Shown piece after piece: positions 28,990 to 35,224 of a stretch of 64,000 nucleotides of DNA. Made by a program: the position numbers and the translations under genes. How positions within the stretch are numbered: position 1 is the first letter of the stretch; every line of letters starts with the position of its first letter. Under the pieces are notes generated by a model, which ran no database searches, was not told the origin of the DNA, and saw only the letters and a program-made list of their open reading frames with translations. The DNA comes from Bradymonadia bacterium (lineage in GTDB: Bacteria; Myxococcota_A; Bradymonadia; UBA7976; UBA1532), in NCBI GenBank assembly GCA_046290225.1, contig JBKAGE010000072.1, positions 35,764 through 99,763 of the forward strand. The letters are read 5' to 3'.

Positions 28990-29892
28990 CTACTCGAACA
29001 GCTCTGGGTCTTCTCTGCTCGGTGTCTCGTGCGTCGCCTCTCGAGGGGTGAGCTCTCCCGTGACCATCTGTACGGGGATCGGCGCCGTGGCTTGACCCGC
29101 GTAGAGGCTCATGTGAGGCAGCGGGATCTCGATGTCGTGCTCGTCGAAGGCCTGCTTGATGGCGATGAACATCTCGCTCTTGGTCCCGAGGTGGTTCCCT
29201 GTGGCCACCCAGAACGAAAACCGCAGATCGATCGACGAAGTACCAAAGGCCAGGGGCACACACTGAGGCGCCGGCTCCTCGAGACAGGACGGGTGCGCAT
29301 CGGCGACAGACATCAGCACCGCCACCACACGCTCAAGATCTTCTTTGTAAGCGACGCGCAGGACGAGATCTGCTCGACGGATCGGAAACCGCGTGAGGTT
29401 GGTGAGCTGGCTCTTGATGAGGGTCTCGTTGGGCACCCGCACCATCAGGTTGTCGAAGGTGCGCAGTTTCACAGCCATCAAGTCGATGGACACCACCTCG
29501 CCTTTGGTGTTGCCCACCTCGATGACGTCACCCACCACGAAGGGGCGCTCAGCCACGAGGAACAAGCCGCTGATCAGGTTGGAGGTGGAGGTCTGGGCAG
29601 CGAAGCCCACGGCGACGGTGAGCAGACCCGCGGCACCGAGGAGCACGCCGAGGTTGAAGCCCCAGGCGTTCAAGGCCGCCCCGAACAAGATGAAGAACAT
29701 CACATACTGCACCCCCCGTCGGGCGATCATCGCCGACTGAGGGCTGCCGTGTCGCTCGGCGATGTTGGCGGCGCTTCGGGCGGCCCACCGGGCCACGGGC
29801 CAGCCGAGGACCAGGATCAAGAGCCCCTGCAGCAGGCTCATGAGCCGATCGCCGGTGAGCCAGGCGCTGACGGCGTCGATCATTTGTCCCAT
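28990..29892 (-). CDS. mechanosensitive ion channel, MscS family
   Basis: ATG at 29892 lies 5 nt after GGAGG and 1 nt after the upstream gene's stop. Pore-helix region GAALNAWGFNLGVLLGAAGLLTVAVGFAAQ, then a beta-domain. The ORF tracker GTG at 29904 is less likely. Confidence 0.8.
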   Translation of the reverse strand: MGQMIDAVSAWLTGDRLMSLLQGLLILVLGWPVARWAARSAANIAERHGSPQSAMIARRGVQYVMFFILFGAALNAWGFNLGVLLGAAGLLTVAVGFAAQTSTSNLISGLFLVAERPFVVGDVIEVGNTKGEVVSIDLMAVKLRTFDNLMVRVPNETLIKSQLTNLTRFPIRRADLVLRVAYKEDLERVVAVLMSVADAHPSCLEEPAPQCVPLAFGTSSIDLRFSFWVATGNHLGTKSEMFIAIKQAFDEHDIEIPLPHMSLYAGQATAPIPVQMVTGELTPREATHETPSREDPELFE

Positions 29893-29893
29893 C

Positions 29894-30718
29894 TCAGCCT
29901 CCACTCCGCCGCAGCCGGCTGAACATGCGGAAGATCAACGGATCGGTCACCGGCAGCCGCCGCTCGCCGATCTTCACCCCATCAGTGATGGTCGGTGGCG
30001 CCCCAGGGATGATGCGCACCGGCAAGGGCTCGGTGCCCCCGGCCCACTCTGCCTGTACGGACTCGGTCCACAGCCCTCCGGCATCTCGATACATGGCCAG
30101 GTGATCGGTGGGCAGACTCAAACGCTCCACGGTGAGGCCATCTGAGTGTCGGTTGTGGATGATGACTTCGGTGGCCACCCGATAACGCAGGCCCAGCAAG
30201 GCCTCGACCCGCATGCGCGCCGCCGTGCGCCCGGCATAGCACAGCACGCCCTCTCGAAAATTGGGGCCGAACCACGTGTCCGAGGGGCGGTAGGTGGGCA
30301 GCTCCATGATCTGCACCCCACCGATGTGCACACCACACCACATGGGGGTGGTGACATAGATGATCGCCTTGCCCTCGGGCGGCACCCACAGGGGCTCGTC
30401 CGGGCGGACCACGACAGGCCGATCGGCCAGCATGGGGGTGATCTGCACCTCGTCGATGTCGGTGGCGGCGAAGCGGCTGGCGTGGAAGCCGTCAGGGGGT
30501 GGCTCGAGGGTGGAAGTGTCATGCACCGCGCACGACCAGACCTTCGCTGTGGGATCTTTGTCGCTCCACCACACCACGCGCCAGTCATCGGGGCGATGGG
30601 TCAGCTCCAGAGTGAGCGGGCCCAAGTGCCATCGGATGGTCTGGCCTTGTTCGATGCTGTGGGGCTCGAGTGGATCGAGGGTGTCGTGCATGGGCACCTG
30701 CTCAATGGCTGAGAGCAC
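29894..30718 (-). CDS. hypothetical protein (co-transcribed with MVP-like gene and MscS)
   Basis: 274 aa, no signal peptide. Codon usage is consistent with neighbours. Stop 1 nt before the MscS ATG. No recognisable motif. Confidence 0.5.
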   Translation of the reverse strand: MLSAIEQVPMHDTLDPLEPHSIEQGQTIRWHLGPLTLELTHRPDDWRVVWWSDKDPTAKVWSCAVHDTSTLEPPPDGFHASRFAATDIDEVQITPMLADRPVVVRPDEPLWVPPEGKAIIYVTTPMWCGVHIGGVQIMELPTYRPSDTWFGPNFREGVLCYAGRTAARMRVEALLGLRYRVATEVIIHNRHSDGLTVERLSLPTDHLAMYRDAGGLWTESVQAEWAGGTEPLPVRIIPGAPPTITDGVKIGERRLPVTDPLIFRMFSRLRRSGG

Positions 30719-30791
30719 GCGACAGCTCAGCGCTGAAGCTCAGATGAGACAGTGGCACACCCTCACCCCCTCGGCCAGATGCCCCACGACC

Positions 30792-33209: not shown

Positions 33210-33373
33210 CGGCTGCTCCTGTGACTCTGATGTACGTGAGGCACGGGCATGAGCAAGGGTCGATCCAACCCCGGCGCACCGCCATTGACTGTGGGGGTGA
33301 TCTGTTCTGACTGCTCGAAGTTGGATCAACTGCGCCATCTTTGATCAGGCGCGCCACACACGGATTCTTCAAG

Positions 33374-33400
33374 CATGCATCTGATTCATCCGATGCATGC
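33374..33400. promoter_or_regulatory. 9-bp perfect inverted repeat GCATGCATC-N10-GATGCATGC in divergent intergenic region
   Basis: Lies between the MVP-like gene start (33209) and the GGDEF gene. Candidate operator. Confidence 0.3.
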
Positions 33401-33403
33401 AAC

Positions 33404-35224
33404 ATGGACTCCCCCATTACCCCCGCTCAAATCGCCGAGCTGACCAGCGAGCTGGTCTGTATTGCCGACACCGATGGCAACTTCTTGTGGCTCAATGATC
33501 GCTGGGAAGCCACCCTCGGGTGGTCCAAGGAAGAGTTACGCGCTCGGCCCTTTCTCGACCTGATCCATCCAGAAGATGTCAGGGCGACCCAGATCGAACT
33601 CGAATCTCTCAAGCAAGCGCAGGACACAGTCAACTTCATCACCCGCTATCGCTGTAAAGACGGGCGCTGGCTGCATCTGGACTGGAACGTCGTGCTCACC
33701 CCCAACAAGGTGTTCGTCGCCGCCGCCCGCGACGTCACCGAGTCGTTCATCCGCGAGCAGGAGCTCGGCTTTCGAGCCCACCTGCTGCAAATGGCCGAGG
33801 GGATGGCTCAGGTGGGGCACTGGCGTGTCGACACCAGTACCGAGGTGGTGTACTGGAGCGATCAGGTCTACGCGATCCATGGTCGGCCCAAGACCTACCA
33901 GCCCCGCCTCGCCGACGCCATCGAGGCCTACCACCCTGATGATCGGAACTTCGTACAACAGGCCGTGGAGCGGGCGATCCGCGACAAGGCAGGTTTCGAC
34001 TTCGAACGCCGTATCGTCCAGCCTGGCGGGGACATCAGGACAGTGCACAGCAAAGGGCAGGTCCTCATTGGTGATGATGGGCAGGTGGCCTCCATCTTCG
34101 GGGTGTTTCAGGACGTCACCGAGCTGCGGCGACGAGAGCGAGAGCTCGAGCTGCTCAACGAAGACATCAACAGCCGTATGGACGAGCTGTCGAACCGCAC
34201 CGACGAGCTGGAGCTGCTCTCGGAGCTTGCTGATCTGCTGCAGAGCACCGAGTCGGAGAGCGAGGTCTACGATGTCTTGTCGTTGATGATGCCGACGCTC
34301 TTCGAACCGCTCTCCGGTGCTGTGTACATCGTGCCTTCGTCGAAACGCACCGCCGTCCGGAGTGTGGAGTGGGGCACCCCCTCGCAAGAGACGATCATCA
34401 GCATCTCTGATTGCTGGGCGTTGCGTCGTGGTCGCAGCCACCGGTTGAGGGCTGATCGCGGTCTGATCTGTGCCCACCACACCCACCGCCCCGAAGGCGG
34501 CAGCGTCTGCAGTGTCATGATGGCTCAGGGTGACAGCGTGGGCATGTTGGTGCTCACAGCAGGGGCCGAGCATGCTCAACTGCTGCAGCAAAAGGCACGG
34601 CTGAGCGACACCGTGGCAGACCAGATGGCCCTGGCGGTGAGCAACGTACGTCTGCGAGAGAGCCTGCGCGAGCAGAGCATCCGCGACGCTCTGACCCGTC
34701 TCTACAACCGCCGGTACATGGACGAAGCCATCGAGCGGGAGTTCGGCCGAGCGGTACGGCGGGGTCAGCCTGCGAGCCTGGTCATGCTCGATCTCGACCA
34801 CTTCAAGCGGTTCAACGATGACTATGGTCACCTGACCGCAGACACACTGCTTGAGTCGTTCGGCGCCACACTCACGAAGCTCATGCGTCAAGAAGACGTG
34901 GCGTGTCGGTGGGGAGGCGAGGAGTTCCTCATCCTGTTGCCGGAGACCGACGCCCAGGGGGCGGTCCAGGTCATGGCCCGGGTGCACGAGCACCTGGCGA
35001 AGCTGAGGGTGGTCACCGCCACGGGGCAGCCCTGTCGGGCAGTGACGGCGTCTATGGGGGTGGCCTCGTTCCCCACTCACGGCCATCACCCGCAGCAGGT
35101 GATCCGCGCTGCGGACGAAGCGCTCTATCTCGCCAAATCACAGGGGCGGAACCGCACGGTGATCGCAGCGGCAGAGGGGGTGGAAGCCTCGTCTCACGTG
35201 ACCAGCCCTACCGCTGACACCTGA
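33404..35224 (+). CDS. PAS/GAF-containing diguanylate cyclase (GGDEF)
   Basis: Two PAS-like blocks and a GAF-like block. C-terminal GGDEF domain with RLYNRRY...LVMLDLDHFKRFNDDYGH...CRWGGEEFLILLPETD. Start is either 33341 or the ATG at 33404. Confidence 0.8.
   Translation: MDSPITPAQIAELTSELVCIADTDGNFLWLNDRWEATLGWSKEELRARPFLDLIHPEDVRATQIELESLKQAQDTVNFITRYRCKDGRWLHLDWNVVLTPNKVFVAAARDVTESFIREQELGFRAHLLQMAEGMAQVGHWRVDTSTEVVYWSDQVYAIHGRPKTYQPRLADAIEAYHPDDRNFVQQAVERAIRDKAGFDFERRIVQPGGDIRTVHSKGQVLIGDDGQVASIFGVFQDVTELRRRERELELLNEDINSRMDELSNRTDELELLSELADLLQSTESESEVYDVLSLMMPTLFEPLSGAVYIVPSSKRTAVRSVEWGTPSQETIISISDCWALRRGRSHRLRADRGLICAHHTHRPEGGSVCSVMMAQGDSVGMLVLTAGAEHAQLLQQKARLSDTVADQMALAVSNVRLRESLREQSIRDALTRLYNRRYMDEAIEREFGRAVRRGQPASLVMLDLDHFKRFNDDYGHLTADTLLESFGATLTKLMRQEDVACRWGGEEFLILLPETDAQGAVQVMARVHEHLAKLRVVTATGQPCRAVTASMGVASFPTHGHHPQQVIRAADEALYLAKSQGRNRTVIAAAEGVEASSHVTSPTADT

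Follow-up and report, generated by a model that had tools for sequence, protein, structure and literature searches.

Genes for an MVP-like protein, a protein of 274 aa and an MscS-family channel were observed one after the other on one strand of a Bradymonadia contig, divergent from a gene for a PAS-GGDEF protein, and the question raised by this locus is which of these neighbours belong together. The stretch of DNA analysed was 64,000 nucleotides long and is referred to here as the window. A preliminary description had read the first three genes as a single transcript for a vault-like shell, its partner and a channel. The order, strands and coordinates of the genes in the window sequence were as it gave them (Table 1), and the MscS ATG (29892) was likewise seen 1 nt past the TGA (29896-29894) of the preceding gene, with a GGAGG ahead of it at 29902-29898. 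The conserved unit at the locus is the 274-aa protein, here called DUF432-like, together with MscS, and not MVP.

Table 1. Genes and sequence features of the locus, numbered by position in the window.
Feature	Position	Strand	Description
MscS-family gene	28990..29892	-	300 aa, three TM helices followed by a cytoplasmic beta and alpha-beta domain; downstream member of the pair
GGAGG Shine-Dalgarno for MscS	29898..29902	-	inside the 3' end of the DUF432-like gene; read from the sequence
DUF432-like gene	29894..30718	-	274 aa if read from GTG 30718, 265 aa from the likelier start ATG 30691; upstream member of the pair
Gap between MVP stop and DUF432-like gene	30719..30791	-	73 nt, or 100 nt to ATG 30691
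Bacterial MVP homologue	30792..33209	-	805 aa; next to the pair in this lineage only
Near-perfect 28-bp palindrome	33373..33400	.	3 nt upstream of the PAS-GGDEF ATG
PAS-PAS-(GAF-like)-GGDEF gene	33404..35224	+	606 aa; divergent from the MVP gene

Alignment of homologues favoured ATG 30691 over GTG 30718 as the start of the DUF432-like gene, which lengthens the distance from the MVP stop; the 73-nt gap reported earlier therefore stands for the GTG start but becomes 100 nt for the favoured one. The longest MVP-like ORF ending at the stop at 30792 extended to 33338, while homologue N-termini supported ATG 33209, preceded by an AGGAG at 33220-33216. No terminator-like site was found in the gap between the MVP and DUF432-like genes, and the RNA structure there was not unusual (z = -0.07). 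The gap is the probable promoter site of the DUF432-like/MscS pair itself, although in this one genome MVP and the pair may share a transcript.

Sixty-eight DUF432-like loci had at least 450 nt of downstream sequence, and MscS was observed directly downstream on the same strand in 65 of these and about 0.5 kb downstream in two more (67/68 in total), with a single locus (L140) lacking an adjacent MscS. The modal distance from stop to start was -4, with 11 loci showing this ATGA overlap. Starting from MscS homologues instead, DUF432-like pairing was recovered in 3 of 3 look-ups. The pair loci were spread over several bacterial phyla, and the pair was also observed in Rhodothermales, Pontibacterium, Thioalkalivibrio sulfidiphilus, Alteromonas gilva and one contig of 6.45 Mb. 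No third conserved gene was found beside the pair, with flanks different in every locus. The single transcript proposed earlier thus holds for the DUF432-like and MscS genes, which are tightly and probably translationally coupled, but not for the membership of MVP. Pairwise identities of the DUF432-like proteins and of their MscS partners were correlated (Pearson 0.68, Spearman 0.30), which is the level expected from shared descent alone. Many of the sources were haloalkaline, as judged from brine and soda-lake contig names and from haloalkaliphilic named hosts, and BCCT, OsmC, LEA_2, CorA and MgtE were observed as neighbours in some loci. Together with the channel family, these habitats and neighbours make the osmotic or stress role hinted at earlier plausible.

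Homologues of the MVP-like protein numbered more than 5752, and we surveyed 10 kb around 80 MVP loci from other genomes, 68 of them with at least 2 kb of downstream sequence. A DUF432-like or MscS gene was observed in none of the 80, and an MVP gene at none of the 35 DUF432-like loci whose upstream sequence reached 2.5 kb or more. The closest MVP homologue was followed by a convergent unrelated gene, and no neighbour was conserved across the 80 loci beyond generic kinases and sensor proteins. The synteny that had been suggested as a check in other MVP-carrying genomes was conserved in none of these loci. The MVP gene is a neighbour in one lineage and incidental to the pair.

The MVP assignment itself rests on sequence and structure matches. 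The protein matched Pfam MVP_shoulder (PF11978) over residues 492-601 (E 3.2e-19, 69.5 bits against a cut-off of 25) and Vault_3 (PF17795, 1e-8), HMMER aligned residues 167-365 to MVP repeats, and a PDB sequence search returned an MVP match (3e-14). Its AlphaFold2 (AF2) model matched solved vault MVPs in Foldseek at E 4e-29 over 835-900 columns, and the beta-repeat region matched murine R1-R7 at E 1.4e-10, with low global model confidence (pLDDT 65). The cap helix was modelled as one continuous helix (602-771), with alignment to the MVP cap-helix region over 462-804. The protein resembles eukaryotic MVP along its whole length, from the beta repeats through the SPFH-like shoulder to the long cap helix, but at about 20% identity, and vault-like particles built from it in bacteria would be putative. 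Bacterial MVP homologues have been reported before (PMC3762200; bioRxiv 10.1101/872010). Whereas the eukaryotic vault has PARP4 (through the MINT domain), TEP1 and vault RNA, the bacterial MVP loci of this sample were without a conserved partner gene, which makes it improbable that gene neighbourhoods will point to bacterial vault cargo.

A close relative (L170) was collinear over about 20 kb, with abhydrolase, orf, A2M, PAS-GGDEF, DUF432 and MscS in order and protein identities of 53-82%. The MVP gene was absent from this region, and PAS-GGDEF was directly divergent from the DUF432-like/MscS pair at a distance of 128 nt; the gap at 30719..30791 showed only weak similarity to this intergenic region. 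The PAS-GGDEF protein of the window, a diguanylate cyclase, matched Pfam GGDEF (PF00990, 3e-51) and PAS_3 (7e-27), and its translation contained an intact GGEEF motif with an upstream RQED (RxxD) site. Its start at ATG 33404 was confirmed by the N-terminus of the orthologue, which was 65-69% identical. Elsewhere GGDEF-like genes were rare, being observed in about 2 of 80 metagenome pair loci and in 3 of 80 MVP loci. The c-di-GMP link drawn earlier is only weakly supported: the adjacency to PAS-GGDEF was conserved in that one close relative only.

The partner channel is a recognisable MscS. The gene product matched MS_channel_2nd (PF00924, 1e-21) and MS_channel_3rd (PF21082, 6.5e-14), both above gathering scores, and aligned to E. 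coli MscS residues 28-275 (E 8e-28). Like E. coli MscS (YggB), the partner proteins are about 280-300 aa long and have three TM helices with a Gly/Ala-rich TM3, a beta-domain, an alpha-beta C-terminal domain and the core motifs; equivalents of E. coli G101, A106, A110, Q112 and G121 were kept, and 36 positions conserved at 90% or more among the partners were common to E. coli MscS. Unlike it, they share only 25% identity with the E. coli protein (53% mean among themselves), have conserved residues of their own and are nearly always preceded by a dedicated DUF432-like gene. They formed a tight group, and other MscS paralogues in the same loci scored far lower. Within this subfamily F replaced the gate residue L109 and T replaced G113, and the charged beta-domain residues E132, D137, K142, R152, E156 and K160 were conserved. 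Textbooks give bacterial MscS as the example of a channel opened by force passed through the lipid bilayer alone, without help from other proteins, and to our knowledge the E. coli channel has been described as a homoheptamer that works autonomously and has no partner dedicated to it.

The DUF432-like protein of the window matched Pfam DUF432 (PF04254) at 16.2 bits (E 0.012), below the cut-off of 21. Its 86 homologues all had precomputed PF04254 matches; when three homologues were compared with the model, one (P0008) passed the gathering score of 21 with 22.5 bits, one (P0019) reached 14.4 bits and one (P0022) gave no match. By these alignments the window protein is distantly related to DUF432: it is clearly homologous to proteins above the PF04254 threshold and itself scores below it. 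The label "unknown" given to it earlier was right as to function but not entirely so as to family. Our search of databases and literature found no function, structure or paper for DUF432. The DUF432-like family comprised 2123 clusters at 50% identity, and among 150 representatives no extra domains and no fusions, including to MscS, were observed. Residues 102-210, a central beta-rich part, covered nearly the whole 123-position PF04254 model; at about 270 aa the bacterial proteins are longer than the model and extend past it at both ends, with a further beta domain at the N terminus and a conserved tail at the C terminus. The AF2 model was all-beta and confident (pLDDT 90, pTM 0.86), structure and sequence searches found no solved structural relative, and the best structural matches were weak and fell among beta-sandwich or jelly-roll carbohydrate-binding and hydrolase folds.

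The protein is soluble, with no TM segment (maximum Kyte-Doolittle 19-residue mean 1.15). Its tail was basic (net charge +2.4) and amphipathic, with a hydrophobic moment of 0.62 compared to 0.27 internally, and was conserved in the DUF432-like proteins as GPR-x6-8-[LV]xRAFxxLFG. E. coli MinD ends in a membrane-targeting ...GFLKRLFGG. The tail resembles MinD/FtsA-type targeting sequences in being short, basic, amphipathic and placed at the extreme C terminus, ending in F-x-x-L-F-G, while the folded domain has no homology to MinD or FtsA. The tail could, from its sequence, be an MscS-docking peptide instead of a membrane anchor. R100, S146, N189 and R254 were invariant and D99, D147, T148, C160, Y161 and R180 nearly so; the set D99, R100, S146, D147, T148, C160, Y161, R180 and N189 could equally form a ligand-binding or a catalytic site.

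Our main reading, to which we give a probability of roughly 0.6, is that the locus consists of three independent neighbours, namely the DUF432-like/MscS operon, the MVP homologue and the PAS-GGDEF gene, and that the DUF432-like protein is a putative accessory subunit or regulator of MscS. The DUF432-like gene followed by MscS would be an ancient, widespread and horizontally mobile two-gene operon, whose overlapping or nearly abutting frames would yield coupled and roughly equal amounts of the two proteins. The tail most likely holds the soluble, cytoplasmic DUF432-like protein at the inner membrane face or on the channel, where it would be dedicated to this MscS subfamily as an accessory subunit or gating regulator. 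It might brake or tune the threshold of tension, or else form a filter at the cytoplasmic cage. Physical contact with MscS, and the direction of regulation, are what we infer. The probable role would be protection from osmotic downshock, above all in saline and alkaline habitats. In this Bradymonadia lineage the MVP homologue lies between the pair and the gene that was its divergent neighbour ancestrally, with no conserved link to either, and the adjacency of PAS-GGDEF to the pair recurs only in one close relative. Tentatively, and at less than even odds, we suggest a narrower form, in which a widespread MscS subfamily has the DUF432-like protein as its auxiliary subunit, cytoplasmic and stoichiometric, with a previously unseen all-beta fold and a C-terminal amphipathic-helix anchor, and in which this subunit sets the gating threshold or inactivation of the channel. 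We know of no dedicated auxiliary subunit described before for any bacterial mechanosensitive channel; if true, this would be the first, in channels considered to respond to membrane tension and nothing else.

Several other explanations were weighed against the accessory-subunit reading. One functional operon of shell, cargo or partner and channel, with control shared with the PAS-GGDEF cyclase, would account for the shared strand of the three genes, their short spacing and the lack of a terminator-like site between the first two, and the MVP shoulder, whose Foldseek matches included stomatin, prohibitin and HflK/C, belongs to an SPFH-like fold; SPFH proteins can modulate channels. We nevertheless consider this operon very improbable, given that MVP and the pair were never found together in either survey, that MVP lacks any conserved neighbour, that its closest homologue lies next to a convergent unrelated gene, and that the collinear relative carries no MVP between PAS-GGDEF and the pair. 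The 274-aa protein, which had been likened to the vault partners VPARP/TEP1, had no PARP, TROVE or vWA matches and no similarity to PARP4 or TEP1 domains in Pfam, and its adjacency to MVP was not conserved. The "vault plus channel" story is attractive and should not be propagated. A similarly slim chance is given to the DUF432-like protein being a c-di-GMP receptor that couples the neighbouring cyclase to MscS gating. The divergent PAS-GGDEF of the close relative (here with MVP interposed), the GGDEF genes near the pair in two other loci (L089 and L124) and the conserved Arg-rich motifs DRPVVVRP and RPSDTWFG are consistent with such a receptor; neither a PilZ domain nor the RxxxR and D/NxSxxG motifs were found in the 274-aa protein.

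The two remaining alternatives accept the pair and differ on what the DUF432-like protein does. It may be a co-regulated stress protein, such as a small-molecule binder or an enzyme with an osmolyte or other solute as its substrate, that makes no contact with the channel and shares the operon because it is needed at the same moment as MscS. The invariant polar residues fit a binding or active site, the weak structural matches were to carbohydrate-binding and hydrolase folds, and no fusions to MscS were observed; we regard this role as unlikely, though a serious contender. It may instead be a chaperone that helps this subfamily of MscS to assemble or to insert into the membrane, or a stabiliser of it, and would then not regulate gating once the channel is mature. 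The synteny and coupling evidence behind the accessory-subunit reading serves this one too, and the six conserved charged residues of the MscS beta-domain could be a transient docking surface. However, canonical E. coli MscS is not known to need a helper for its assembly, the partner MscS retains canonical size and core motifs, and translational coupling implies approximately equimolar synthesis, which would be wasteful for a catalytic chaperone, leaving this role improbable in our judgement.

Co-transcription of MscS-family genes with non-channel genes in envelope or osmotic stress responses has precedents in the cmaX-cfrX-cmpX genes of P. aeruginosa (PMC7641640) and in the ectoine ect-mscS clusters (PMC5924519). 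As described, the partners there belong to other families, none of them DUF432-like, and the taxonomic range is narrower than that of the pair. The DUF432-like protein, which accompanies one MscS subfamily across phyla, is a concrete candidate for protein-level regulation of such a channel, and the pair gives the whole DUF432 family its first functional context. The presence of the pair in cultured Thioalkalivibrio sulfidiphilus, Alteromonas gilva and Pontibacterium granulatum makes experiments feasible.

A palindrome was also observed ahead of the PAS-GGDEF gene. The sequence GCATGCATC-N10-GATGCATGC at 33373-33400 had the perfect 9-bp arms reported earlier, although its start was 1 nt before the position then given (33374). 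It extended to 13-nt arms, complementary at 12 of 13 positions around a 2-nt spacer, and ended 3 nt before the GGDEF ATG. No other half-sites were found, and the palindrome was absent from two relatives (L164 and L170). Perfect 9-bp inverted repeats with loops of 3-12 nt occurred six times in the window compared to 5.6 expected from Markov simulations, so that the palindrome is not unusual window-wide. The RNA hairpin region had a folding energy of -23.5 kcal/mol (z = -2.8). The sole suggestive feature, and a mild one, is the intergenic position of the palindrome.

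The gene order given in the preliminary description was real: an MVP-like gene, a gene for a 274-aa protein and an MscS gene follow one another on the minus strand, with a PAS-GGDEF cyclase gene diverging from them across a 194-bp region between the MVP-like and cyclase genes, and only small corrections to coordinates were needed. The 274-aa and MVP-like proteins were 100% identical to NCBI ACE366_24055 and ACE366_24060, respectively, and the MscS protein, canonical in size and domains, was 100% identical to an NCBI entry named "mechanosensitive ion channel family protein"; these entries belong to a 112-kb contig, and the window as a whole matched a Bradymonadia MAG. 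The 274-aa protein had been described as unknown; its gene stands, but it is not wholly unknown, as it matched DUF432 as a sub-threshold relative. Its ATG start, which is that of the homologues, is more likely than the GTG. No defence-system matches were found for any of the four proteins with PADLOC, and no credible RNA elements were found with Rfam between 28.5 and 35.5 kb.

Features of the window and identity of their counterparts in the collinear relative L170
Feature	Position	Strand	Remarks	Identity to L170 counterpart
Low-GC stretch	~24000-28900		GC 0.58-0.59 vs 0.63-0.69 in surroundings	
221-aa ORF	26606-27271	-	no known identity; within low-GC stretch	
FAD monooxygenase gene	27516-28823	+	within low-GC stretch	
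MscS gene	28990-29892	-	ATG 29892, 1 nt past DUF432-like stop and 5 nt past GGAGG (29902-29898)	70%
DUF432-like gene	stop TGA 29896-29894; start GTG 30718 (274 aa) or ATG 30691 (265 aa)	-	from ORF and homologues	54%
MVP-like gene	30792-33209	-	ATG 33209 behind AGGAG, agrees with homologue N-termini	
Palindrome	33373-33400			
PAS-PAS-(GAF-like)-GGDEF gene	33404-35224	+	ATG 33404; diverges from MVP-like gene	69%
Alpha-2-macroglobulin gene	35230-40476	-	1748 aa	76%
Abhydrolase gene				82%
ORF after abhydrolase				53%
DUF4139 protein gene			farther along	71%

The conserved and previously undescribed feature of this locus is the operon of the DUF432-like and MscS genes. We surveyed 80 metagenomic DUF432-like loci, together with look-ups in Rhodothermales, Pontibacterium and others. 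In 68 loci the sequence ran on for 450 nt or more past the DUF432-like stop. Of these, 65 had MscS directly downstream on the same strand, two had it about 0.5 kb downstream, and it was missing from one (L140). The modal stop-start distance was -4, an ATGA overlap seen in 11 loci, with the other distances mostly below 60 nt. The reverse look-up from MscS found a DUF432-like gene directly upstream in all three cases (the closest relative, Thioalkalivibrio sulfidiphilus and Alteromonas gilva). No third conserved gene was found around the pair, as clustering of the neighbours returned only MscS and its shadow frames, and no MVP gene was observed in the 35 loci whose upstream sequence reached 2.5 kb or more. 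Sources of the pair were skewed to brines, soda lakes, marine sediments and haloalkaliphilic genera. Some pairs have genes for osmoadaptation or ion homeostasis as neighbours: one (L169) adjoins transporters of the BCCT and MFS types together with OsmC, and another (L168) adjoins CorA, LEA_2 and MgtE.

At 50% identity the DUF432-like family falls into about 2,100 clusters, of which 1,445 lie at E up to 1e-30; lengths are about 260-300 aa throughout, with no fusions among the best 150. No transmembrane segment was found in the DUF432-like protein. Its C-terminal tail, a region of low model confidence, carries the conserved motif GPR-x6-8-[LV]xRAFxxLFG and is both amphipathic (hydrophobic moment 0.62 vs 0.27 internally) and basic (+2.4), and we take it to resemble the membrane-targeting helices of MinD and FtsA. 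The partner MscS proteins share a mean identity of 53% with one another and 25% with E. coli MscS, and have conserved residues peculiar to the subfamily in both TM3 and the beta-domain.

From the near-obligate adjacency, the translational coupling and the docking-type tail we infer that the DUF432-like protein, probably cytoplasmic and peripheral to the membrane, serves this MscS subfamily as an accessory subunit or a regulator. Rival explanations would make it an assembly factor for MscS, a stress or ligand-binding protein that is co-regulated with the channel, or a receptor for c-di-GMP. The last would fit the link to c-di-GMP proposed earlier. The cyclase lies beside the pair in one close relative, with a spacing of 128 nt in both L170 and the near-identical L164, and the window shares this adjacency with that relative only. 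A PilZ-like c-di-GMP receptor was rejected. Among the papers found, none mentioned DUF432 or PF04254, and no MscS auxiliary protein of the kind suggested here was described.

The MVP-like gene had been proposed to form a vault unit with the pair, with conservation of the synteny in other MVP-carrying genomes suggested as a check. Taking one genome per GTDB species, we obtained 371 MVP relatives and examined the best 80 of these loci with flanks of up to 10 kb, at least 2 kb of sequence downstream of MVP being available in 68. The pair was absent from all 80: no DUF432-like gene was found by hmmsearch with the family profile at E up to 10, a profile that recovered the 274-aa protein of the window at 5e-98 as positive control, and no MscS homologue was found by phmmer. 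GGDEF-like ORFs were observed by phmmer in three of the 80. Clustering of all ORFs within 5 kb in these loci found no conserved MVP neighbour; the largest cluster held Ser/Thr kinases from 17 loci, in mixed positions and on both strands, followed by sensor/response-regulator proteins from 13. Downstream of the nearest MVP homologue (59% identity) lies a convergent, unrelated gene. The vault-centred reading of the locus is not supported, and the lack of this synteny in other MVP-carrying genomes is the outcome that had been named as refuting it. The homologues in the 80 loci look stand-alone, in Myxococcota, Bacteroidota, Sericytochromatia, Anaerolineae, Wallbacteria, Vulcanimicrobiota and others.

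The MVP gene of the window is a known kind of bacterial homologue, of which more than 5,752 matches were found and which has been described previously (PMC3762200; bioRxiv 10.1101/872010). No paper found had examined the gene neighbourhoods of bacterial MVP. The protein matched Pfam MVP_shoulder (3e-19) and Vault_3 (1e-8), and MVP among PDB sequences (3e-14). Its AF2 model, of low global confidence (pLDDT 65), contained beta repeats, an alpha/beta shoulder and a 170-residue helix, and matched the solved vault MVPs of human, rat and rabbit over the full length in Foldseek (E 4e-29 to 4e-24). Residues of about 375-428 form a low-complexity linker of ~50 residues, rich in Ser, Gln, Lys and Ala and predicted to be disordered (pLDDT about 30), which breaks the repeat array ahead of the Vault_3 repeat, where eukaryotic MVPs are unaligned.

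We compared the window with 20.9 kb of L170, a contig of 139 kb from a close relative. The two were collinear, with no MVP gene found by tblastn across the 20.9 kb, which makes MVP a presence/absence difference within a conserved block. Because MVP was absent from every other locus of the pair, its insertion in the lineage of the window would be the parsimonious reading. No direct repeats flank the MVP gene as insertion scars, and the boundaries cannot be defined since the intergenic similarities to the relative are too weak (between 3 and 132 of 500 shuffles scored equally well). The low-GC stretch is a second difference and may be a recent insertion, as L170, collinear elsewhere, lacks it. 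The alpha-2-macroglobulin of the window has a full, eukaryote-like architecture, with MG2/MG3, bait region, TED_complement and receptor-binding domains.

The palindrome placed earlier in the shared control region is present, with arms that extend to 13 nt, but we rejected a role for it in a regulon: no other half-sites were found, the orthologous region in the relative lacks it, and perfect 9-bp inverted repeats are not enriched in the window (six seen vs 5.6 by chance). As RNA it would form a predicted stable hairpin directly ahead of the GGDEF start codon. The PAS-GGDEF protein retains GGEEF and, five residues upstream, the RxxD inhibitory-site motif (RQED), which points to an active enzyme under product inhibition. 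Between its PAS and GGDEF domains, GAF_3 matched weakly (E 0.002).
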